In this document: positions 6,642 through 25,731 of the stretch, one piece after another
Layout: every line of letters starts with the position of its first letter
How positions within the stretch are numbered: position 1 is the first letter of the stretch
Assembly (NCBI RefSeq): GCF_055900595.2
Contig: NZ_CM148325.1
Length of the DNA stretch: 64,000 bases
Direction: 5' to 3' (one strand)
The notes under the pieces: model-generated
Databases searched by the model: none
What the model was told of the DNA's origin: nothing
Seen by the model: only the letters and a program-made list of their open reading frames with translations
Position numbers and translations under genes: made by a program

Positions 6642-7700
6642 ATGTTTTCAATGATATTAAGCGGGCTAATTTGTGGTGCTCTGCTGGGATTTGTCATGCA
6701 GCGTGGGCGTTTTTGCCTGACAGGTGGTTTTCGCGATATGTATCTCGCGAAAAATAATCGCATGTTTTACGCCTTGCTGATTGCAATTTCGGTACAAAGT
6801 GTGGGGGTTTTTGCGTTAATTCAGGCGGGCCTACTGACTTACGAAGCCGGGGCGTTCCCGTGGCTTGGTACTGTTATAGGTGGGTATATCTTCGGGCTGG
6901 GAATTGTTCTGGCGGGTGGATGTGCCACCGGGACCTGGTATCGCGCGGGTGAGGGATTGATCGGCAGTTGGATCGCGCTTTTCACTTATATGGTGATGAG
7001 TGCGGTGATGCGTTCTCCACATGCCAGTGGTTTAAATCAAACCTTGCAGCACTACAGTACTGAACATAACTCTATTGCTGAGACTTTTAATTTGTCTGTG
7101 TGGCCGTTGGTTGCCGTTTTGCTGGTGATAACGCTCTGGGTGGTGATGAAAGAGTTGAAGAAGCCAAAACTCAAAGTCGCGACCTTACCGCCGCGCCGAA
7201 CCGGGATCGCTCATATTCTGTTTGAAAAACGCTGGCATCCCTTTGTCACTGCTGTACTCATCGGTTTGATTGCGCTTTTAGCCTGGCCCCTGAGTGAAGC
7301 AACCGGACGCATGTTTGGGTTAGGAATCACTTCCCCAACGGCCAATATTCTGCAATTTCTGGTCGCGGGTGACGTGAAATACATTAACTGGGGCGTTTTC
7401 CTGGTGTTAGGGATCTTCGTGGGGTCATTTATTGCAGCCAAAGCGAGCCGTGAGTTCCGCGTTCGCGCAGCTGATGCACAAACAACATTACGTAGCGGGT
7501 TAGGTGGTGTACTGATGGGCTTCGGTGCCAGTATTGCAGGTGGTTGCTCTATCGGTAATGGACTGGTTATGACTGCAATGATGACCTGGCAGGGCTGGAT
7601 TGGCCTTGTATTTATGATTCTCGGAGTCTGGACTGCGTCCTGGCTTGTGTATGTTCGACCGCAGCGTAAGGCGCGACTGGCAACTGCTGCGGCAAATTAA
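6642..7700 (+). CDS. yeeE: Thiosulfate transporter YeeE/TsuA
   Basis: 352-aa polytopic membrane ORF with paired Cys-containing repeats; immediately followed by yeeD. Confidence 0.9.
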   Translation: MFSMILSGLICGALLGFVMQRGRFCLTGGFRDMYLAKNNRMFYALLIAISVQSVGVFALIQAGLLTYEAGAFPWLGTVIGGYIFGLGIVLAGGCATGTWYRAGEGLIGSWIALFTYMVMSAVMRSPHASGLNQTLQHYSTEHNSIAETFNLSVWPLVAVLLVITLWVVMKELKKPKLKVATLPPRRTGIAHILFEKRWHPFVTAVLIGLIALLAWPLSEATGRMFGLGITSPTANILQFLVAGDVKYINWGVFLVLGIFVGSFIAAKASREFRVRAADAQTTLRSGLGGVLMGFGASIAGGCSIGNGLVMTAMMTWQGWIGLVFMILGVWTASWLVYVRPQRKARLATAAAN

Positions 7701-7713
7701 GTAAGGTGTAAAG

Positions 7714-7941
7714 ATGGCGATTAAAAAGCTGGATGTGGTGACGCAGGTCTGTCCGTTTCCACTCATAGAAGCAAAAGCAGCACTGGCAGAAATGGCCAGC
7801 GGCGATGAGTTGGTAATTGAGTTTGATTGCACCCAGGCAACTGAAGCAATCCCACAGTGGGCGGCAGAAGAAGGACATGCCATCACCGATTATCAGCAGA
7901 TTGGCGATGCAGCGTGGAGCATCACCGTTCAAAAAGCCTGA
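7714..7941 (+). CDS. yeeD: TusA-like sulfurtransferase YeeD/TsuB
   Basis: 75-aa ORF with the TusA CPxP motif (VCPFPLIEAK). Confidence 0.9.
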   Translation: MAIKKLDVVTQVCPFPLIEAKAALAEMASGDELVIEFDCTQATEAIPQWAAEEGHAITDYQQIGDAAWSITVQKA

Positions 7942-7952
7942 CTCAACATTGT

Positions 7953-7976
7953 CCTCCGCCGTACCAGCGGCGGAGG
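7953..7976. terminator. Bidirectional hairpin between convergent yeeD and sbcB
   Basis: CCTCCGCCGTACCAGCGGCGGAGG perfect stem-loop. Confidence 0.6.
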
Positions 7977-7983
7977 CTTCAAA

Positions 7984-9411
7984 TTAGACGATCTCTTCCG
8001 CGTACTGCCAAAGCGCTTTTAACAGTGCCACTTTCTCTTTGTCATCGGCATATTGTTGTGCCAGCATCTGCAATTCATCTGCATAACCCTGTAAAAACTC
8101 TGGCGTGAAGACCTGGCGGCGGTGCTCCAGCCAGCGTTGCTGCTCGGCATAATCCAGCGTCCCCGGGAAGTTGCGCGCCCGATAATTGAACAACAGCTTT
8201 TCAATCCGTTTATCGACAAAAGTGATATCCAGTGCCGGTAAATTACGCGGCTCGGTTTCCAGCACAATTTTCATTGCTGCACGATCGGCGTCACTGAAAA
8301 AGCCGTTATAAAGCTGTGCATCCACGTTATCTGAAGGCGTAAACGGTTCGGCTTCCGCGAATATCGCCACCACTTTTTCGCGCACTTGCGGATTTTCACG
8401 CAGAATTTTCAGGTTATTGAGGCAATGCTGACGATTAATTCCCAGTCGGTCGGCATCTTCCGGGCGTAGCGTATTCGCCTGGGCCAGCACCGGACATTTA
8501 TTGATATGCACCAGCTTAACCGGAACGGCGGCGTTATCGCCAAGATCGGTTTTTGCGGTATATAAACGCTCGCGCAATGTGTCGCTATCCAGTTCCAGTA
8601 ATGGCGAAATGTCTCCTGCCAAATCCACCATAATTACGGCATTGCGATTTTCAGGATGCCACGCCAGCGGTGCCACCCAGCTGGTATTGCCGCGCCATGC
8701 CCCAAACATTCCGGAAACGTGCACCAGGGGTTTCATCTGCGGAACATCAATCAACGCCATCAGTTTGTGTTTATTACGATGGGTAAAGAGATATTCAAAC
8801 AGGCGTGGCTGACGCGTTTTTACCAGTTTCGCCATCGCAATAGTGGCGTACACATCAGCCATCGCATCGTGGGCGTTGCTATGTTCAATTCCATTCGCTT
8901 TGGTTAAATGCTCAAGGCGAAAGCTCGGTAGACCGTCATCATTTTCAGGCCAGTTTATTCCTTCCGGGCGCAGGGCATAACAGGCACGCATAACATCCAG
9001 TAAATCCCAGCGCGAGTTATCATGCTGCCAGCTCCAGGCGTAAGGATCGTAGAAATTACGATAAAAAACGTTGCGTGTGACTTCGTCGTCGAAACGCACA
9101 TTGTTGTAGCCCAGAATACAGGTCTTCGGTACGTTAAAAAGCGAGTGAATACGGGCGGCAAACGCGGCTTCGTTTTCTCCTTTCGCCCGTGCTTCCTGCG
9201 GGGTAATACCGGTAATTAATACTGCTCCAGGCTGGGGCAAATAGTCATCCGCGGGCTTGCAGTAAAAGACTTCGGGTTCGCCGATGACATTGAATTCGCT
9301 ATCGGTGCGAATGGCTGCGAACTGTGCAGGGCGATCTAACGCGGGGTGCGTGCCAAAGGTTTCGTAATCGTGAAACAAAAAGGTAGATTGTTGCTTACCG
9401 TCATTCATCAT
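7984..9411 (-). CDS. sbcB: Exodeoxyribonuclease I
   Basis: Translation MMNDGKQQSTFLFHDYETFGTHPALDRPAQFAAIRTD... (475 aa, DEDDh exonuclease); ORF-track start at 9483 is an extension. Confidence 0.95.
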   Translation of the reverse strand: MMNDGKQQSTFLFHDYETFGTHPALDRPAQFAAIRTDSEFNVIGEPEVFYCKPADDYLPQPGAVLITGITPQEARAKGENEAAFAARIHSLFNVPKTCILGYNNVRFDDEVTRNVFYRNFYDPYAWSWQHDNSRWDLLDVMRACYALRPEGINWPENDDGLPSFRLEHLTKANGIEHSNAHDAMADVYATIAMAKLVKTRQPRLFEYLFTHRNKHKLMALIDVPQMKPLVHVSGMFGAWRGNTSWVAPLAWHPENRNAVIMVDLAGDISPLLELDSDTLRERLYTAKTDLGDNAAVPVKLVHINKCPVLAQANTLRPEDADRLGINRQHCLNNLKILRENPQVREKVVAIFAEAEPFTPSDNVDAQLYNGFFSDADRAAMKIVLETEPRNLPALDITFVDKRIEKLLFNYRARNFPGTLDYAEQQRWLEHRRQVFTPEFLQGYADELQMLAQQYADDKEKVALLKALWQYAEEIV

Positions 9412-9613
9412 TAGGTTAAATCCGTTATTTCTGCTGTCTGCCAGAGTATCAAATATCACCGTGCTAATCAGCTTTAGCGCCACAATTTGGCAGCTAGTGG
9501 CAACAGATCATGTCAGATAAAAATGAGAGGGTAGTCACATTTTCTTGCACTTTATTCCAGCCAGTTCATAAGTATTTCCGTAAAAAGAACAGCTATTTGA
9601 AACTCCTGAGGGT

Positions 9614-14032: not shown

Positions 14033-14227
14033 TTACAGCAACTGGTGAGGGCTGGCATAAGTTGCCGGTGTTTCGGTAGAGTCACGGTCATCCACCACGC
14101 GGAGTGAATAACCTTTTTCAGCGGCCTTATTAATCAGTTCAGTGATATTAACACCATCAATGTCAACGACAATGTGCCCCATATCCAGCGCCTGTACGTT
14201 AACGCTGTCGGCTTCCAGTGTCATCAT
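14033..14227 (-). CDS. yeeW: CP4-44-type prophage protein YeeW
   Basis: 64-aa ORF MMTLEADSVNVQALDMGHIVVDIDGVNITELINKAAEKGYSLRVVDD...; its start overlaps the cbtA stop. Confidence 0.8.
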   Translation of the reverse strand: MMTLEADSVNVQALDMGHIVVDIDGVNITELINKAAEKGYSLRVVDDRDSTETPATYASPHQLL

Positions 14228-14597
14228 TTCGCCTCCGGATACTTACCCAGGGTAATGTTATTTACCGTTCTGTAATTGTCGCGGGTCATCAGGCCGGTCG
14301 CCCTGCGAGCCCGGAGGATATCGATGCTGTTTATTAACTGAGAGCGGGTACAGGCGCTGAATCCCGGCTGGTCGGTAGCACCAGCGCGTATTTTTCCACG
14401 AGAAAGTTCACCGCATCACACAGTGAAATGCCTGCCTCAATATGCTGCTCAATCACACGTTCATCGGCAAAAGGTGTGTCATTCAGTGTGAGGCCATAGT
14501 GCTGGTCCAGCAGTCGGGACAGCAGTATCTGCCAGATTTCAACAGGAGACGGGCGAGAACTGGTCGCCTGCCCGGGTAATACAGGTAATGTTTTCAT
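14224..14597 (-). pseudogene. cbtA: Type IV toxin CbtA (YeeV), frameshifted
   Basis: N-terminus [36 protein letters not shown]... intact to ...VEKYALV, then frame is lost near 14395; the C-terminus ...NSIDILRARRATGLMTRDNYRTVNNITLGKYPEAK reads in an adjacent frame. Confidence 0.8.
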
Positions 14598-14685
14598 ACT
14601 GAAGATTTTCCTGATATGCAGATATAAAAATGGAAAAGTGGCGTGGTGAAAACACCAGGCCGTAGCAGAAGGCTATTCTGGAGAG

Positions 14686-17286: not shown

Positions 17287-17506
17287 ACTTTGCTCCTTAT
17301 CGGTGGTTAAGATTTACTGGTGCAATAAATGAAAAAAGCCGCGTCTCCCGGAGAAGACGCGGCCTGACGGGTGAAATGAATAAGGTTTATTGTCTGAGAG
17401 GCCTTTCACTGGCGAGCCACGCATTAAGCGGCTTTCCGGTAACAATGGCTGGGGCTGTATTTACCTTTGATATTAATAATGTGCAGAGAAACGCATGGTT
17501 TACTCC

Positions 17507-17917
17507 TTAGATTTTAAGTTTGTCCTGGGCTACAACGACAGGTTTTCCGGATGTGTCGATGACTCCTACCGTCGGTACGCCATTTTTGATTTCGAAGAAC
17601 GGTTTGTTGCTACCTGAGCACAGTTGATTGTCCCCGTATTCAATCATTTGTGCTTTCCCGGTTTTCAGGTTAACTACCGAGACAGTGTAGTCGTAGCACC
17701 AGGCACCACCACGTTCAAGCACGAAAACATAGCTGTTATCTTTATAGTTGAACTGATTCTTTGTCTGGCAATTCATACCGTCAATTTCGGTACAGGAAAA
17801 CGCTTCTGTAGTATTAACGTATTTGATGTTATTTGGCAGTTTTACTTGTTTCGCAGTAGCGAAGACAGAGAACAGAATAGTTACAGCAACGAGTAAAGTT
17901 TTGATAAAAGTTTTCAT
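17507..17917 (-). CDS. Small secreted protein, unknown function (signal peptide, 4 Cys)
   Basis: 136-aa ORF MKTFIKTLLVAVTILFSVFATAKQ...; AT-rich relative to neighbours; plausible RBS. Confidence 0.6.
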   Translation of the reverse strand: MKTFIKTLLVAVTILFSVFATAKQVKLPNNIKYVNTTEAFSCTEIDGMNCQTKNQFNYKDNSYVFVLERGGAWCYDYTVSVVNLKTGKAQMIEYGDNQLCSGSNKPFFEIKNGVPTVGVIDTSGKPVVVAQDKLKI

Positions 17918-17932
17918 GATAGACTCCTTAAA

Positions 17933-18421
17933 TTAGTTAACCGCAGCTACGTAGTTTTTCACCAGATACGCGAATTCATGCACGCCAATTTCACCGAACC
18001 AAACCAGGTAGGCCGGGTCATCTAAACCAAAGTAACGGTAGCCAACAACTTCATGGGTTTTTGGGTTATAGAGTGTTACGATAAAGTCCCAGCCGCAGGT
18101 ATTGGCTTTGCAACCGTCGCCCTGGAACCAGACTGTACCGTTAATGTTTACTGGCGTGATACCTCCACCAGGGCCATCCATATAGCCGCCTTTACCGAAC
18201 ATGCCGCTCAGTCCGACCGGTTTTAATGCTTTGTCGATAGCGGCTTTGTAGGTAGCGTCACCTTCGTACAACTCGTACGTTGATGGACACGCTCCAGGTT
18301 GTTCAGCCCAGGCTTCCGGGTTACAACTAAGAGCTTGTTTTACGGTAGCCGCTTCTGCGTTAAAGTTAAAGCCCGTGAACAGAACCGCCAGAAATAACAT
18401 AAGGGTATGTAAACGTTTCAT
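17933..18421 (-). CDS. Secreted protein with an Ivy-like C-K-x3-C loop (possible periplasmic lysozyme-inhibitor-like protein)
   Basis: From internal Met: MKRLHTLMLFLAVLFTGFNFNAEA... with GDGCKANTCGWDFIV; ORF-track start at 18724 is an implausible 100-aa extension. Confidence 0.55.
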   Translation of the reverse strand: MKRLHTLMLFLAVLFTGFNFNAEAATVKQALSCNPEAWAEQPGACPSTYELYEGDATYKAAIDKALKPVGLSGMFGKGGYMDGPGGGITPVNINGTVWFQGDGCKANTCGWDFIVTLYNPKTHEVVGYRYFGLDDPAYLVWFGEIGVHEFAYLVKNYVAAVN

Positions 18422-18718
18422 TGTAAATATTCTTCCGTTGTAAATGGCGCTGGAAAATTTCTCATCAGTGAAACCTTCCGGAAGTTTCCCCCCCTTGTAT
18501 GATGTATATCGCCAGTATTTTATTTCATCCCGGCTGTAATTTTTATATTCCCCGGCACGTGCAATAACGCTGACCAGAGATATAAGGCTCATTAATAACT
18601 TTACAGGTAATTTCATAATTAAATTTCCAGTGAGTGAATTGACAGGTGAGGGGTAAAACTTTCTCTCAGGTAATATATATCTGAAAATATTTTCAATAAC
18701 ACCAGACAGGAAAAACAC

Positions 18719-18748
18719 CACCACAGGCGGTGGCGTTTCTTTGGGGCG
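18719..18748 (-). terminator. Rho-independent terminator downstream of the patatin gene
   Basis: Minus strand CGCCACCGCCTGTGGTGGTG followed by TTTTTCC, directly after the stop at 18752. Confidence 0.6.
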
Positions 18749-18751
18749 TCT

Positions 18752-19822
18752 TTATTTAATCCGGGCCATCGCGTTTCTCAGTGCCAAATCTGCCTCTTCC
18801 GTTATATCCAGGCTTTTCTGCAATACCGCCTCTGACCGGGTCAGTGCCTGACGTGCTGCCAGCGGTTTCCGGATATGCTCCATCGCCAGCATCGTGTCTT
18901 CATAGCCCTGCTGACGCCAGGCGTCGGTATGTGCCGATGTAAAACTGAGCAGACCGCCGCTGTTGCCACCATCACCTGCATATTTCAGCCTTTTCCGGGG
19001 ACGGATCTCAAGGATTGTGGTGTCCGGAAAAGCCTGGCGATCCCATAAAGAACCGTCACTCAGATGCGTCACAATCACCATATTGCATCCGGCATCGACC
19101 AGAGGTGTCACAGGGGTATTTCCCTGCATATTTCGCCATCCTCCCATACCACCATCACCGAACATTGTCCCCTGAACCTCACGGGGACGGAACAGCAGGG
19201 GCAGCGCGGCTGACGCAAGCAGAGCCTCTTTCTGCTGTCCGCGGGGCAGGCTCTGGATATGCTGAAAAACGGCGTTTTTCGTGGTTCCGACACCCAGTTC
19301 AGCACGAATGCAGTCAATAATATCCTGCATGCCCCCTTCTGTGGGGTACAGCGACACATACAGCGGTAGCCCGTCTGCCAGAGCATCAGTATCAAGATAA
19401 TGATCCATCAGCGCTGTCAGGGGTTCATCTGACAACAACGGCTGAGCCATCAGATTGTCAAACCCGTTGATTGTCGATATATGGCGAAGAAGCGTCGTAA
19501 GCAGTGCTCCTGCACGTCCGGGGATCTGGCAGAGGTTCATTGCCTGGAACAATTTTTTCAGCAATGAAAAGTAAACCAATCTGTTTACCGACAGCACCTG
19601 ATTATTCCCCAGATGATCCCAGAGCGCCTCCAGGCGTACGGCAGCTTCTGACAGATCGGGAGAGGCCACGATAATGGCACCATTGAATGCGCCAATGCTG
19701 GCCCCTGAAACCATGCTGATCTGTGTACCACACTCTGCCAGTGCCTTAACCACTCCCGCCTGATAAGCGCCCACCGCCCCGCCACCGGACAGCACCAGCC
19801 CCGTTTTCATTTCTGTACTCAT
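18752..19822 (-). CDS. Patatin-like phospholipase
   Basis: Oxyanion-hole LSGGGAVGAYQAG, nucleophile elbow GASIG (GxSxG) and catalytic DGG (FGDGGMGG); start overlaps upstream stop (ATGA). Confidence 0.85.
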   Translation of the reverse strand: MSTEMKTGLVLSGGGAVGAYQAGVVKALAECGTQISMVSGASIGAFNGAIIVASPDLSEAAVRLEALWDHLGNNQVLSVNRLVYFSLLKKLFQAMNLCQIPGRAGALLTTLLRHISTINGFDNLMAQPLLSDEPLTALMDHYLDTDALADGLPLYVSLYPTEGGMQDIIDCIRAELGVGTTKNAVFQHIQSLPRGQQKEALLASAALPLLFRPREVQGTMFGDGGMGGWRNMQGNTPVTPLVDAGCNMVIVTHLSDGSLWDRQAFPDTTILEIRPRKRLKYAGDGGNSGGLLSFTSAHTDAWRQQGYEDTMLAMEHIRKPLAARQALTRSEAVLQKSLDITEEADLALRNAMARIK

Positions 19823-20724
19823 GCAGCCCCCTTCTGAAATATTTCATCGACCATACTTTCAGAGAGGCGTTCTGCAGAGCAGAGGCGAGGCATGCGAACC
19901 GGTAAGTGTTCTGCAGCCTGCGTGGTTGACCAGATCACCGGATGCTGCTCTTCACTGCACCAGTCTCCCAGCCAGTTAATCGCGTCATGCCACTCGTTAT
20001 CTGCCTGCTCCCGGCCCTGACCACCAAGCCAGTCCAGAGTGTTCAGACGCACGGTTGCACTACCGCCACTCTCCTGTGCCATCTGCGTTAATGCTTTATG
20101 TCTGAGAATATCCAGTAGCTGGTTAACCTGGCCTGTTTCGCTCTGACGTATCACATCACCAAACGCGCCCCAGCGAAGCTCTTCAAGTGCCACATAACAA
20201 CGTCCGGCAGGGGAAAATGACGCATATCGCCCGGCGCTCCACCATGAGAATATCTGCTCAAGATGTAACTGCGCCCGCTGAACCTGGTCAACACGGTGGA
20301 GTTTTTCTTCAAGATGATTCAGTTTATGGTGAACCTGATCGGCCAGGGTGAGTAACTGCTCCCGCGTATCTGCGGAATAATGCGCCAGCCTGGCTGTATC
20401 ACTGACCAGTGAACTGACCCTGTCGTTTACCCGGGTAATCGCGTAGTTTGTGGTGGCAAGTGACGTTGTCATCTCCGTCAGCCAGCGCAGGGACGCCTCA
20501 ACGCCCTGTGCAAGCGACGCATTGATGGCATTCTGCCGTGCAGCGCCTTCGCCGGTCAGCCCCTCTTTTAAACGCCGGAAGAACGTGCGCTCTCCGGCCG
20601 TGCGGATATGCTCCTGTGCAACATCGATTCCGTTTGCGAAATCAACCACAAATTTTTCAGGAAGACAGGTGAGTACCTGACATACCCGGTTATCAGCAAT
20701 TTGTTGAATAAATGGTGAAGTCAC
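19819..20724 (-). CDS. Hypothetical 301-aa protein, translationally coupled between the dynamin-like and patatin genes
   Basis: ORF MTSPFIQQIADNRVCQVLTCLPEKF...; no motif recognised; 4-nt ATGA overlaps at both ends. Confidence 0.7.
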   Translation of the reverse strand: MTSPFIQQIADNRVCQVLTCLPEKFVVDFANGIDVAQEHIRTAGERTFFRRLKEGLTGEGAARQNAINASLAQGVEASLRWLTEMTTSLATTNYAITRVNDRVSSLVSDTARLAHYSADTREQLLTLADQVHHKLNHLEEKLHRVDQVQRAQLHLEQIFSWWSAGRYASFSPAGRCYVALEELRWGAFGDVIRQSETGQVNQLLDILRHKALTQMAQESGGSATVRLNTLDWLGGQGREQADNEWHDAINWLGDWCSEEQHPVIWSTTQAAEHLPVRMPRLCSAERLSESMVDEIFQKGAA

Positions 20725-23117
20725 AGCATTGTCTCCAGCTCTTCCCTCAGCGCCTTACTGTCAGTAATGAGCTCAGGAACCCTTTCATTTAATGCCTGAA
20801 GTCGCCCGGTAAGTCGTTCCTGCGCCTGCTGATCGCGTTTATGATCTTCAGAGCTCTGAATCAGCGTGTTACGCAGTTGTTCAACTTTCTCCCTGAATGC
20901 GCAGAAAAAGGCATCGATTTCCTGGCGGACGGGCTGGTTAATATCCTGCTCAATGGATGCCTGCAGCTCCCCGAAATATGCCCGGGTCAGTGACATAACT
21001 TCCTCTCTGACCTTGTTGATATTGATCACGCTGCGACTCACATCCTCGTCATAGTTTTCCCAGCCCAGGTCACTGGTGCCAAACCATCGACAAACGGTTC
21101 CCCATACGCCACTCTGCCGACGGCGACGGGTGACGGTCTCCGTTCTTTCCTCCATAAGCGCACTCAGATTTATTTTTACCGCGAGCCGGGTCTGTAACTG
21201 GCTGACTGCCGGAAAACTGATTTTTACGGTAAAGCCCTCATCCTCCAGGCGGGCATTGATGCGACCGGCAATGTTTTCTGTGGCGTACAGGGCCGTGCCA
21301 CGAAAACCTGTTTCAATCCCGCTGACGATTTTCTCCAGCTCAGGCCGGAACTGTGCTTCAGCCTCACGGTGCAGGCTGGTCACGGTCGATTCGATTTGCG
21401 TCATCAGTTCAAGGGCTTCCCTGCGATCACTGAATTTTATTTCGGGGCTGTCCGGGGCAAAATCTCGTTTCCTGTAATCCTCCCGGCCCTGGTTGTTGAT
21501 ACCGGACCATTGAGAAATTTTCCCCCATAATCCGGACTGAGACCTTCGTTGTTCTGCGTCTTCTTCCTCCAGCATTTGCTGTTCTTTGCGTTTACCGCTT
21601 CTGAAATAGTCATTCAGCTCCTCTTCCAGTGAGGTGCAGACCCCCGTCAGTAATTCCCGGGTTTTAGTATCGATCTCCTCCATGGCCATTCTGACATCAG
21701 TGGTCATCTGCTCCTGACAGTCCGCGATTTCCCGGATATCCGCAAGCAGGCTGGTGATATGCGACTGCAGTGACTGAATGCTTTGCTGTAGCCCCTGATG
21801 GCGTAACAACAGGTATTCACTGATATTTTCTGCATTCTGCATCAGTTTTGCGGCGGCAGAGTCAACCGCCAGTGCCGCAGCTCTGGAATGTGAGCTCTGT
21901 ATGACTTCCGTTATCAGTTGATCGATAAGTGAGCCTTCCCACAGGTCTGTCGCCCCTTCAGTTGCCAGTTCACTGTCTTTACAGACGTATTCTTTTTTCA
22001 TGCAACCGAAGGCACCTCTGATAAAATCATCGACCCAGGCTTCATCAACAGGAAGGGTTCCGTTTTTCCGTAACTCATGAAGCGCACGGTTAGCCAGGTA
22101 TGCCTGGCGTGAGGATCCGGGATAAACGCGGGAGGCGGGCAGCACATTGCTGTTCAGCATTGCCGGAACTTTCTGGCGTACGGCATCTGCCCCATCGCCA
22201 TTGCGGTCTTTCTCATCAAATTTATTGACCAGTACAAACAGGCGGCCGGCTGATACGTCAGCAATGGCATTAAGCTCTTTACGGACGTCTTCATCCGCTT
22301 TTGAGTTCATCTGTGTGTAATCCATCACAGCCAGAACCGCAGAGGCTTTCTGCAGTTGATCCCGCATCATCACTTCCATCTGCGGTTGTCCGGCCTCATT
22401 AGGGCCGGGGGTATCCAGCAGTGTGAGTGTTCCCTGGCATGCATCCATCCCCACCAGATGGCTGAATTCCACGTCGATCACCGGCAGTTTCTGCACTTCT
22501 GCGTATTCATCAAAAGGAAATTCAGTCCCCATTGCCGCAGCAAGACGAACCAGATCGTTTAACGATGCCAGTCCGGTAAAGATTTCCTCCTCCCCGTGGT
22601 ATTCATTTTTGAGCCAGCCATCATCCGTCAGAATATCCAGCAGTTCGCGGGTATCCCCGGTTTGCTGCAGGGTCTGTGCGACCTGCTGTCCTGCCGGGGT
22701 GGCGAGTTTTTCCTGCAGTGTGATTAATAAATTGCGGACAGGCTGAATATGTTCCAGATGGAGAACCGGCTCAGTTTTTCCGGGAACGTGGCGGATGAGC
22801 GTCGGTACAGAGGTCATGGGGCGGTTACGGTTAGGCAGAATTTCCTGCCCCACAATGGCGTTGATGGTGGTTGATTTGCCTGCTTTCATCGTGCCGACAA
22901 CAGCCAGCACCATCTCCCTGCGGGCGGTTTTGATTTGTTCGCCCTCCAGCTCCTCAATTCTTTTCAGTGCTTTCTGTTTATCAAAAAGCAGTCTGTTTTC
23001 GTTCTTACTGTCAGATAACACATCTGGCTCCTCAACCATTTGCCGGAGCAGATTAATGTTCAGTTGCAAAAGTCGGTCGGCTTCATCACAAAGCAGGGCG
23101 ATGTTCTTTTCGTGCAT
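20721..23117 (-). CDS. Dynamin-like large GTPase (bacterial dynamin-like protein, 798 aa)
   Basis: G1 GTMKAGKST, G3 DTPG, G4 NKFD, followed by a long helical, charge-rich stalk region. Confidence 0.85.
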   Translation of the reverse strand: MHEKNIALLCDEADRLLQLNINLLRQMVEEPDVLSDSKNENRLLFDKQKALKRIEELEGEQIKTARREMVLAVVGTMKAGKSTTINAIVGQEILPNRNRPMTSVPTLIRHVPGKTEPVLHLEHIQPVRNLLITLQEKLATPAGQQVAQTLQQTGDTRELLDILTDDGWLKNEYHGEEEIFTGLASLNDLVRLAAAMGTEFPFDEYAEVQKLPVIDVEFSHLVGMDACQGTLTLLDTPGPNEAGQPQMEVMMRDQLQKASAVLAVMDYTQMNSKADEDVRKELNAIADVSAGRLFVLVNKFDEKDRNGDGADAVRQKVPAMLNSNVLPASRVYPGSSRQAYLANRALHELRKNGTLPVDEAWVDDFIRGAFGCMKKEYVCKDSELATEGATDLWEGSLIDQLITEVIQSSHSRAAALAVDSAAAKLMQNAENISEYLLLRHQGLQQSIQSLQSHITSLLADIREIADCQEQMTTDVRMAMEEIDTKTRELLTGVCTSLEEELNDYFRSGKRKEQQMLEEEDAEQRRSQSGLWGKISQWSGINNQGREDYRKRDFAPDSPEIKFSDRREALELMTQIESTVTSLHREAEAQFRPELEKIVSGIETGFRGTALYATENIAGRINARLEDEGFTVKISFPAVSQLQTRLAVKINLSALMEERTETVTRRRRQSGVWGTVCRWFGTSDLGWENYDEDVSRSVININKVREEVMSLTRAYFGELQASIEQDINQPVRQEIDAFFCAFREKVEQLRNTLIQSSEDHKRDQQAQERLTGRLQALNERVPELITDSKALREELETML

Positions 23118-23250: not shown

Positions 23251-24159
23251 GACAACCCGGGTATGGCTGCGTTTGCATAGTGTTTTCATGGAGTTAAAAA
23301 TCTGTAACAACAGCCTGGTACATCACCACCGGGTTCAGAAGAAAATCCAGTTCCATACCGCGCGGGCAACAGAGACCACCTAGTCACGGACGGCGCGCAG
23401 AACCGTGCGTGCAACAGAGGCAATGCAGACGCTCTCCGCCGTGTCAAATATCCGGTCCACCGCACCGGTAAACTGTTCACGGGCCTGAGACCGGACAGAC
23501 TCCGTGCGCAGCTCGTCCTGCAGGCGGGTCATCAGGGGACTGGCGGCATGGTCGGGAAGTGCTGTCATGAGCGCACTGACCAGCGTATCCAGTTCCCAGC
23601 CGGTGCGGGCCGATACGGCAACAACCCGATGTACGGGCCGGAACAGACGGAATACCGCCTCCGTTTTTTCGCGAATGTTCTGTGCCTGTGCGGGAGAAGG
23701 CTGAATACCGGCCATATCCCATTCATGGCAGGGCTCCGTTTTATCGGCCTGCATCACCACAAACAGTACCCGCTGATGTCCCCGGTGCAGGATGTGTCGC
23801 CAGAAATACTCATCCACAGACAGGGCACGGTCATCGGCTTTAATCAGCCACAGTACCAGGTCCAGTTCGAGCAGAATGTCACGGTACAGGGCTTCATACT
23901 CTGCATCCCTGTCCCGGCTCTCGCCCACCCCGGGCAGGTCAGTGATAACCATGCTGTGACCATGGCCATTCAGACGGAAGCGCTGCACTTCCCGGGGGCC
24001 GGCGTGAACATCACTGACCGGGGTGACCTCCCCCTGAAACAGCGCATTACAGAGTGAGGATTTACCGGCCCCGCTTTTACCCATAATGCCAGGCACGGGT
24101 TCGTGACTGGTGAGTTTGCGCAGATGTTCGTAAGCGACTCGTCAGAACCGTATTGATAT

Positions 24160-25731
24160 TTACTGAGAGCTCAGATCAACTTTCCAGGGCAACAGATCGC
24201 GTACCCGGTTTGCCGGCCAGTCCTGGATATGTTCAATGACGTAACGCAGCCACTTTTCTGGCTCCACATTGTTCAGACGGCATGTGCCGATCAGCGAGTA
24301 CAACACCGCCGCATGTTCACCACCGCTGTCGGAACCCGCGAACATCCAGTTTTTCCGGCCTACGGCCACTCCCCGTAAGGCGTTCTCTGCGATGTTGTTG
24401 TCGATTTCCACCCAGCCATTACTGCAGTACACGTTCAGTGCATCCCACTGTTTCAGCAGGTATGCGAACGCTTTTGCCGTATCTGAGTGACGCGACAGTG
24501 TTTTCATCTGTTGCTGTATCCAGTCATACAGTGACTGCATCAGTGGCGCGGCTCTGGCTTTTCTTGCCGCCAGACGCTGTTCTGCTGAACAGCCCCGGAC
24601 CTCTGCCTCGATGGCATACAGTTCACCGATACGCTGCAGGGCTTCCGTGGTGATGTAGGTGGGCGCTCTTGCATGCACATCGTGGATTTTTCTCCGGGCA
24701 TGAGCCATACACGCGGCTTCCGTTATTCTGCCGGATTCGTATAACGCCCGGTAACCACCGTAAGCATCGGCCTGAAGCACACCGCTGTAACCGGCCAGGT
24801 GATTTTGTGGATGGATACCTTTCCGGTCCGGACTGTACGCGAACCAGACCGCCGGGGGCATCTGTGAACCGGCGTTACGGTCATCACGGACGTAGACCCA
24901 CAGCCGGGCTGTCCGGGTTTTACCGCTGCCCGGCTCCTGGACCGGGACGGGGATATCATCAGCATGGACTTTACCGGGCATCAGCACATACTGGCGCAGG
25001 ACGTCATACAGCGGCTCCAGCAGTTCAGCAACAGCACCTGTCCAGCGCCCCAGTGTGGCACGGCTCAGCTCCACTCCCTGACGACGGTATATTTCTGACT
25101 GGCGGTATAACGGCAGATGGTCTGCATATTTCCCGGTGACAACATGGGCCAGAAGCCCCGCTCCGGCATAACTGCGTGCAATGGGTTTTGAAGGTACTGG
25201 TGCCTGCACGATATGGTCGCACCGGCAACAGGCCTGTTTCGGACGTTGTGTTTCGATAACCTTAAAGGCGCTGCTGATAAGCTCCAGTTGCTCTGACACA
25301 TCACATCCCAGAGAACTGAGTTCACCACCACAGGCAGGACAGCATTCCTCTTCCGGCCGGATAACCCGGGTTTCACGGGGAAGTGAGGCCGGTAACGGTT
25401 TACGGGCTGAAGACTGGCGCAGGGCGGATGGCAGTACCGGGTCATATTGCTCACCCAGCGTTTCCGCCATTTCTTCCTGAAGTGCGCTGATTCGCTCCTG
25501 TGCTTCCTGTATCTGCCGTTCGGTTTTTGCACGAAGTTTTTCTGAGCTTTTACCGAACTGCATACGTTGCAGTTTCGCAACCAGCGCCTTCAGCCGGTTG
25601 ATTTCGGAAGCATAAGCCGCCACCCGCTGTGAGAGCAGGCGGTTGTATTCAGCCATCTGGCGGATGGTGTCCTGTTGCGTCTGCAACAGTGCCCGCAGGC
25701 GGGCGTTCTCATGAGCAAGTGAGGTGTCCAT
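24160..25731 (-). CDS. tnpC: IS66-family transposase TnpC (Orf3)
   Basis: 523-aa ORF with N-terminal coiled coil, zinc-ribbon CPACGG and C-terminal ...[27 protein letters not shown]. Confidence 0.9.

Follow-up and report, generated by a model that had tools for sequence, protein, structure and literature searches.

What are two small, apparently secreted proteins doing behind a patatin-like phospholipase gene in an Escherichia coli genomic island? Their genes lie next to each other on the minus strand of a 64,000-nucleotide stretch of contig NZ_CM148325.1 (RefSeq assembly GCF_055900595.2; this whole stretch is referred to as the window), one encoding a 162-residue precursor (17933–18421; mature length ∼138 residues) and the other a 136-residue four-cysteine protein (17507–17917). 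A preliminary description, made from the letters alone, had pointed to a loop in the longer protein that resembles the exposed loop of Ivy lysozyme inhibitors, and had suggested that the two could be periplasmic inhibitors or immunity-like proteins. As judged from its predicted fold and sequence homology, the 162-residue protein is, with good support, a divergent member of the Ivy family. By analogy with Ivy, we think it somewhat probable that it acts in the periplasm to inhibit cell-wall glycosidases of the lysozyme fold, with phage muralytic enzymes as the most likely targets; the gene pair is probably phage-borne.

The Ivy-like protein and its loop

Both small open reading frames (ORFs) are real genes under purifying selection and not chance ORFs, as is evident from the frequency of their homologues and from low ratios of nonsynonymous to synonymous substitution (dN/dS). 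Homologues of the Ivy-like protein are present in 2332 of 5426 complete E. coli genomes and those of the 136-residue protein in 2365, both ORFs are intact in about 35–42% of complete E. coli genomes, and dN/dS relative to diverged copies is 0.12–0.20 for the Ivy-like gene and 0.11–0.23 for its neighbor. The two ORFs are thus present where the preliminary description had placed them (17507–18421), and translation bears out its count of four cysteines in the shorter product; its start (Met at 18421) and stop (17933) for the longer product also stand, but the length is 162 rather than 163 residues, the latter number including the stop codon. The clear signal peptides that it had seen on both proteins are supported by Sec-type features, judged for both from sequence features alone: each N terminus has Lys/Arg residues, a 12-residue hydrophobic core (Kyte-Doolittle 2.5–2.9), and an AEA/A or ATA/K cleavage motif, and a lipobox is absent from both. 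In the Ivy-like precursor, the putative signal peptide comprises residues 1–24 (MKRLHTLMLFLAVLFTGFNFNAEA; 18350–18421, minus strand), with predicted cleavage before ATVKQ; n-, h-, and c-regions can be recognized, ending in AEA/A, and the hydropathy over 12 residues is 2.5, compared with 2.2 in E. coli Ivy.

Assignment of the mature protein to the Ivy family follows from the agreement of fold prediction, profile homology, direct sequence similarity, and loop register. An AlphaFold model of the mature protein (nine family members) has a predicted local distance difference test score (pLDDT) of 87 and a predicted template modeling score (pTM) of 0.85 and displays an Ivy-like fold, in which five antiparallel strands lie between N-terminal helices and a helix at the C terminus. 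The preliminary description had proposed structure prediction followed by a Foldseek search as a check, and the outcome favors it: matches 1–8 in the Protein Data Bank (PDB) are all Ivy structures (4ps6, 1uuz, 1gpq, 1xs0; probability 1.0), with template modeling (TM) scores of 0.56–0.73 (query- or target-normalized; mostly 0.62–0.73), and the ninth match has E = 0.13. At the sequence level, a family profile run against 1.8 billion representative proteins retrieved 47 relatives, and the Pfam Ivy family (PF08816) is matched by 22 of the 30 sequences in an alignment made up of 26 profile-retrieved relatives, three members of the query family, and E. coli Ivy. Alignment of the family to an Ivy-family alignment that includes E. 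coli Ivy (hhalign) gives a probability of 99.5% (E = 2e-23, 119 columns, with C80/C85 on C57/C62 of Ivy), a value that is weakened as evidence because the Ivy alignment (A6) was built from hits of the query profile and is therefore not fully independent; against E. coli Ivy alone, E is 3.5e-4. In a direct tblastn comparison, the protein aligns over 96% of its length, at 33% identity (E = 8e-11), with the products of genes on Klebsiella plasmids; the NCBI name of these products is "Ivy family c-type lysozyme inhibitor." The Ivy resemblance inferred earlier from the loop motif is therefore real and reaches well beyond it. Other annotation routes gave little: the RefSeq label of the product is hypothetical protein, Pfam and NCBIfam scans of both small proteins gave nothing useful, phmmer searches with either protein produced no meaningful match to PDB sequences, no family in PADLOC-DB matches either of them at E ≤ 1, and a literature search by accession found nothing. 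One Ivy-like allele is named "DNA polymerase III subunit gamma/tau" both in RefSeq (H71, NZ_CP074785.1 770001–770109) and in UniRef (P0014), an evident misannotation.

The loop itself lies in the segment GDGCKANTCGWD, between Cys104 (codon 18112–18110) and Cys109 (codon 18097–18095), so that the codons for C-K-A-N-T-C occupy 18095–18112 on the minus strand. Because Cys104 and Cys109 fall on Cys57 and Cys62 of Ivy in every alignment (hhalign and MAFFT), CKANTC can be taken as the counterpart of the CKPHDC loop, which is reported to be essential for lysozyme inhibition by Ivy (PMC4262234). In the AlphaFold model, the loop sits between strands 2 and 3. Across the E. coli Ivy-like family, the residues C, K, C, G, and W are invariant and the interior of the loop varies (CKANTC, CKAHAC, CKSNAC, CKSDAC, CKANAC); the window allele thus departs from the CKPHDC consensus and its conserved His, and sister alleles have His, Asn, or Asp. 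Compared with the Ivy proteins of known structure (E. coli YkfE, 1GPQ/1XS0; P. aeruginosa, 1UUZ/4PS6), the window protein shares Sec-type export, the predicted fold, and a disulfide-closed loop of six residues, the second of them Lys, that has the same position in the sheet and precedes a Gly. It differs in overall sequence (only about 16–22% identity), in having CKANTC for CKPHDC, in an additional N-terminal Cys pair (C-x11-C-P) relative to E. coli Ivy, and in genomic location, Ivy belonging to the core genome and the window gene to a mobile island and phage-like contigs.

A composite gene model and a jumbo-phage-like gene cluster

Where the Ivy-like gene begins bears directly on where its product would end up. 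In the RefSeq annotation (Prokaryotic Genome Annotation Pipeline, PGAP), translation starts at 18616 (MKLPV...), which yields a 227-residue ORF in which a second signal-peptide-like segment stands ahead of the first. Diverged homologues are 160–161 residues long, and all begin at MKRL. The extra 65 codons (18422–18616, minus strand) are 49% identical (E = 5e-16) to residues 1–63 of an intact 180-residue protein from a sister island (L003), in which a patatin gene is followed by the gene for this Cys-containing secreted protein (7098–7640), by a frameshifted copy of a 131-residue gene (7660–7980; 77% and 54% identity in two frames), and then by the Ivy-like gene. Because the extra codons match the N terminus of a protein that L003 keeps intact, the 227-residue ORF is, by this comparison, a chimera, in which a deletion has fused the 5′ end of the 180-residue gene in frame to the Ivy-like start, leaving a remnant that corresponds to a signal peptide and ∼43 further residues. 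By membrane-topology rules, initiation at 18421 alone would place the Ivy domain in the periplasm, and the corrected gene model matters to anyone deleting or expressing the gene. It should be noted that the remnant remains open in several diverged alleles (P0001, P0002, P0005, P0006).

Outside E. coli islands, genes of this kind are found in a longer array (records L007, L012–L015, and L020, the last a 222-kb Enterobacter record), which consists of two YfjT-family genes (one in some), genes for proteins of 131 residues, the Ivy-like protein, and proteins of 136, 129, 158, and 202 residues, and a gene for an SMC-like protein. The Ivy-like proteins of the array have signal peptides and are 59–75% identical to the window protein, and the 136-residue protein of L007 is 65% identical to its window counterpart. 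The SMC-like protein of L007 is 71% identical to gp207 of the Erwinia jumbo phage Asesino, and the array is collinear with Asesino gp201–207 and with phage Lh1B, where the Ivy slot is taken by a third four-cysteine paralogue. Contigs with these proteins reach 221–227 kb. The guanine-plus-cytosine (GC) content of the phage-like contigs, 43.6–44.6%, also explains why the pair (41%–49%) differs from the dynamin/RdcB/patatin genes upstream (52–54%): GC makes up 41.1% of the 136-residue gene, 48.7% of the Ivy-like gene, and 39% of the sequence upstream of the latter. The marked AT-richness ascribed earlier to both genes is borne out only in part, and the different origin that had been deduced from it is supported by the gene order and low GC content that the pair has in common with the jumbo-phage-like contigs.

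The E. coli islands retain traces of the neighboring phage genes in the order of the array: the frameshifted gene in L003 is a pseudogene of the phage 131-residue gene, and a trace of the gene behind the pair is still present in the window. Behind the 136-residue gene, an eight-codon stub with its own Shine-Dalgarno sequence (ATG CGT TTC TCT GCA CAT TAT TAA; 17473–17496, minus strand) is the truncated start of the 129-residue paralogue: its DNA alignment with L007 and L020 takes in the Shine-Dalgarno sequence, the start codon, and the codons right after it and then breaks at the junction seen in L003 (8484–8530), an island that has no 136-residue gene. The common break-point in the window and L003 points to one ancestral acquisition followed by different deletions, and the data are most simply read as one event in which the island captured a phage segment, which was later eroded.

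The 222,441-bp Enterobacter ludwigii record (L020; NZ_CP134650.1, "plasmid unnamed1") is circular, non-mobilizable, and filed as a plasmid, and its Ivy-like gene (locus 9001–9480) has no entry in the PLSDB gene table. The gene order in the examined stretch matches the Asesino/Lh1B type, so that this record probably represents the genome of a jumbo phage. In the jumbo-phage-like contigs, the cluster is immediately preceded by a pair of YfjT-family (PF27224) secreted-protein genes (6598–7551 in L007, 4078–5041 in L012); PF27224 is the family of yfjT in the K-12 cryptic prophage CP4-57, suggesting that exported cargo is common to islands and jumbo phages more widely.

The partner protein and the proposed role of the pair

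The 136-residue protein matches phrog_8968 (E = 2.6e-45) and has homologues in E. coli, Salmonella, and jumbo phages. Its model (pLDDT 68) is all-beta, and Foldseek gave no fold assignment. PliC/MliC, PliG, and PliI are small, exported, beta-rich proteins of Gram-negative bacteria, and the 136-residue protein could in principle be of this kind; no sequence or fold match to any of them was found. A profile of the four-cysteine family found nothing among PDB sequences, and the YfjS/YafY family (PF20494) produced only weak matches to the four-cysteine family (Pfam E = 0.083 for one paralogue; Foldseek rank 43, E = 0.89), with an hhalign probability of 0.8% against K-12 YfjS. The exported proteins YfjS/YafY and YfjT of CP4-57 and CP4-6 are encoded in the same kind of island as the window pair and belong to the same position class.

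A link between the two products comes from fused relatives. The closest annotated relatives of the Ivy-like protein, from Salmonella, Klebsiella plasmids (WP_226650519.1), and Pectobacterium (profile E down to 1e-20, with the N-terminal Cys pair also present), are 280–360 residues long. Behind a signal peptide, they have an Ivy domain that an Ala/Pro-rich linker connects to a C-terminal four-cysteine domain related to the phage 129- and 136-residue family, i.e., both domain types are joined in single polypeptides, whereas the window has them as separate adjacent genes. A hidden Markov model (HMM) of the fused C-terminal domain scores 17.7 bits against the phage 129-residue family, four of whose nine members score 5.8 bits or more; of 18000 composition-preserving shuffles, 55 reach 5.8 bits and none reaches 17.7 bits. 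In the corresponding hhalign comparison, all four cysteines are aligned, with E = 0.003 and a probability of only 9%. Because related proteins fuse both domain types, the two window proteins may act jointly: the Rosetta-stone pattern suggests, with moderate support from these comparisons, that they are functionally coupled. The Klebsiella plasmid fusion gene of L010 (4872–5945) adjoins CP4-type genes (GTPase family, WYL, and DUF905). Salmonella, which is said to be without Ivy homologues (PMC2267010), gains a family of Ivy-like proteins. The loops of the fusions read CEQGNC, CEANNC, and CEAHNC (L010, P0088, P0089, P0120), and some of the Salmonella copies are labeled "Prophage protein."

From these data, we propose the following scheme. 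The Sec pathway would export the 162-residue product, the 24-residue signal peptide would be removed, and the mature protein would adopt its Ivy-type fold in the periplasm, with helices packed on a five-stranded antiparallel sheet and the disulfide-closed CKANTC loop protruding from it. By analogy with Ivy, the loop would plug the active-site cleft of a peptidoglycan glycosidase that has the lysozyme fold. The gene pair would be a fragment of a secreted-protein cluster of phiKZ-related (Erskinevirus/Seoulvirus-like) jumbo phages that CP4-44-type islands captured and that has since eroded at both ends. The likeliest targets would be muralytic enzymes delivered by phages, e.g., virion lytic transglycosylases or lysozymes, such that the pair, with the 136-residue protein probably as the partner of the Ivy-like protein, would act in the periplasm as a barrier against infection by phages or the lysis that they induce. 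That the protein binds a glycosidase, which enzyme it targets, and that it acts against phages are all inferred here.

A known system that may serve as a model for how the pair works is Spackle (gp61.3) of phage T4, a secreted inhibitor of the tail lysozyme gp5 that limits later infection (PMC7650644). Spackle is likewise small, phage-encoded, provided with a cleaved signal peptide, and periplasmic, and homologues of the window proteins with predicted signal peptides are encoded in jumbo-phage-like contigs. Mechanistically the two differ, Spackle being an allosteric inhibitor and Ivy-type proteins acting through a loop that enters the active site (PMC7650644). No Spackle structure is among the top 50 PDB fold matches listed, and there was no PDB sequence match.

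The anti-phage role is backed by a single result, a knock-down by CRISPR interference (clustered regularly interspaced short palindromic repeats interference, CRISPRi) of what is apparently the same protein. In the PHAGEPACK preprint (bioRxiv 10.1101/2024.04.20.590424), Hypo_04657 of E. coli O121 is described as having an Ivy-like domain, a "CKANTC" loop, and a helical hydrophobic region; upon its knock-down, the fitness and plating efficiency of T7 increased, and the authors propose that it is an inhibitor of phage lysozyme. Hypo_04657 appears to be the window protein in the form of the 227-residue ORF. The preprint takes the long ORF to be a single protein of two domains, with the helical part at the C terminus and T7 lysozyme as the proposed target, and is silent on the 136-residue neighbor, on the chimeric origin of the ORF, and on the jumbo-phage cluster. 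The Ivy resemblance was therefore already noted in 2024; the present analysis adds a corrected gene model, an origin in jumbo phages, and evidence from fusions for a two-protein module. As to the target, the virion protein gp16 of T7 carries a transglycosylase domain (PMC2680503), Ivy is also reported to inhibit lytic transglycosylases (PMC3660660, PMC10139938), and an Ivy-type periplasmic inhibitor would more plausibly meet gp16 during entry.

A number of points weigh against an exported, phage-derived inhibitor of phage enzymes. The Pfam Ivy HMM matches neither the 227-residue nor the mature sequence, even at E = 10. The loop His is conserved in ≥90% of the wider Ivy-family alignment and is Asn in the window allele, and this substitution may leave the protein without activity toward classical c-type lysozymes. 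With the RefSeq start at 18616, the Ivy domain would probably remain in the cytoplasm. For Hypo_04657, the preprint gives the reverse domain order; moreover, CRISPRi is polar, so the T7 phenotype could stem from the 136-residue gene or from both genes, and T7 lysozyme is a doubtful target because gp3.5 is an amidase, not a glycosidase (PMC2680503). Finally, the Ivy-like gene is found by tblastn in none of 50,697 deposited phage genomes, and the attribution to phages rests on metagenomic contigs and the 222-kb record filed as a plasmid.

Among other readings of the pair, the one that survives best, although we consider it unlikely, is the classical role of Ivy, in which the protein inhibits animal c-type lysozyme and aids survival in gut or tissue, and its carriage by phages and islands reflects fitness cargo and not phage defense. 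The fold and loop geometry are as in Ivy, the closest annotated relatives have been given the corresponding name by NCBI, the commonest sister allele has a His in its loop (CKAHAC), and the gene is frequent in animal-associated E. coli. The window allele, however, has neither the His nor the Pro-His-Asp core of the loop that is reported as essential (PMC4262234), E. coli already has a chromosomal ivy, a lytic jumbo phage would gain little from blocking the lysozyme of its host's animal, and the reported knock-down phenotype concerns phage T7.

A further reading, to which we give slightly less credence still, has the protein regulate the cell's own lytic transglycosylases, as a brake on autolysis under envelope stress, including stress from the dynamin/patatin neighbor. 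Ivy proteins, among them a paralogue without the canonical loop, have been reported to inhibit MltB of P. aeruginosa, and the Ivy of E. coli is a weak inhibitor of MltA and MltB (PMC10139938, PMC3660660); island operons homologous to the dynamin/RdcB/phospholipase genes are also strongly induced in lysogens (PMC12922286). Yet the effect of E. coli Ivy on lytic transglycosylases is weak and was not seen in vivo, the pair occurs in phage-like contigs that have no dynamin operon, and a brake on autolysis leaves the rapidly varying loop unaccounted for. That the genes are inert, decaying phage cargo, remnants with no present function in E. coli, is improbable: the array is indeed eroded (the fused remnant, the deleted 131-residue gene, and the truncated 129-residue gene), and cbtA and a GTPase gene of the island are frameshifted, but the intactness of both ORFs in so many genomes, a dN/dS of about 0.1–0.2, and the reported knock-down phenotype (bioRxiv 10.1101/2024.04.20.590424) all speak for function.

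Least probable by far, and rejected on genomic context, is the tie to the neighboring operon raised in the preliminary description, by which the pair would confer immunity to the patatin-like phospholipase next to it or to the dynamin system: the pair does lie directly downstream on the same strand with no separate promoter found, but a terminator hairpin lies between, the GC content differs, the pair is conserved with other neighbors in phage-like contigs that have neither patatin nor dynamin genes (L007, L012–L015, L020), the patatin operons of other islands are followed by different gene combinations (e.g., the 180-residue and Ivy-like genes without the 136-residue gene), and the patatin has no evident signal peptide whereas both small proteins have predicted export signals.

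About 40% of complete E. coli genomes carry the pair under the name "hypothetical protein," and Ivy membership provides a concrete biochemical role to test; the jumbo-phage link, the fusions, and the reported T7 phenotype point to a periplasmic defense layer that blocks cell-wall-cutting enzymes, a mode of action that defense catalogs hardly cover. More speculatively, and as a tentative suggestion only, the two proteins may constitute a two-part module from phiKZ-related jumbo phages that neutralizes muralytic enzymes, either those of rival phages or the phage's own, and that has been domesticated by islands of E. coli, Salmonella, and Klebsiella. If this were true, the module, kept either as separate genes or as a fused protein, would provide superinfection exclusion or lysis control, and would represent a widespread, uncatalogued extracytoplasmic anti-phage barrier in which the variable loop position (N/H/D) tracks different phage enzymes.

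The surrounding island

The region is a CP4-44-type E. coli island beside yeeA/tmaR and has the same sequence as an annotated stretch of the O103:H2 strain 12009 (L001). Reading along the minus strand, a dynamin-family gene (20721–23117), an RdcB-family gene (19819–20724), and a patatin-like phospholipase gene (18752–19822) are followed, just past the patatin stop codon, by a terminator-like hairpin with a T-run (18716–18732; −20.6 kcal/mol, z = −3.95). Then come the two small genes, of which the 136-residue gene starts 15 nt downstream of the Ivy-like gene behind an AAGGAG Shine-Dalgarno sequence, and a second, strong terminator-like hairpin with a T-run (17336–17365; 13-bp stem, −24.5 kcal/mol, z = −5.4); beyond it, the minus-strand order continues with DUF932, an antirestriction gene, yeeS, yeeT, and cbeA. 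A minus-strand promoter scan found no sigma-70 consensus promoter upstream of the pair between the two hairpins, and for this reason the separate transcription unit that had been proposed for the two small genes is plausible and no more than that.

The L001 record flags cbtA (the toxin of the CbtA/CbeA pair) and a YeeP-like GTPase gene as frameshifted (around 14200–14600 and 23300–24200 of the window), and several further island genes are partial in that record, suggesting that the island is decaying. The dynamin/RdcB/patatin operon (18752–23117) has only weak matches in PADLOC, to LeoBC (8.8e-5) and to a phospholipase effector (5e-4). Homologous operons on islands of E. coli MP1 contain the genes most strongly induced in Kapi1 lysogens and have been proposed to act in phage defense (PMC12922286).

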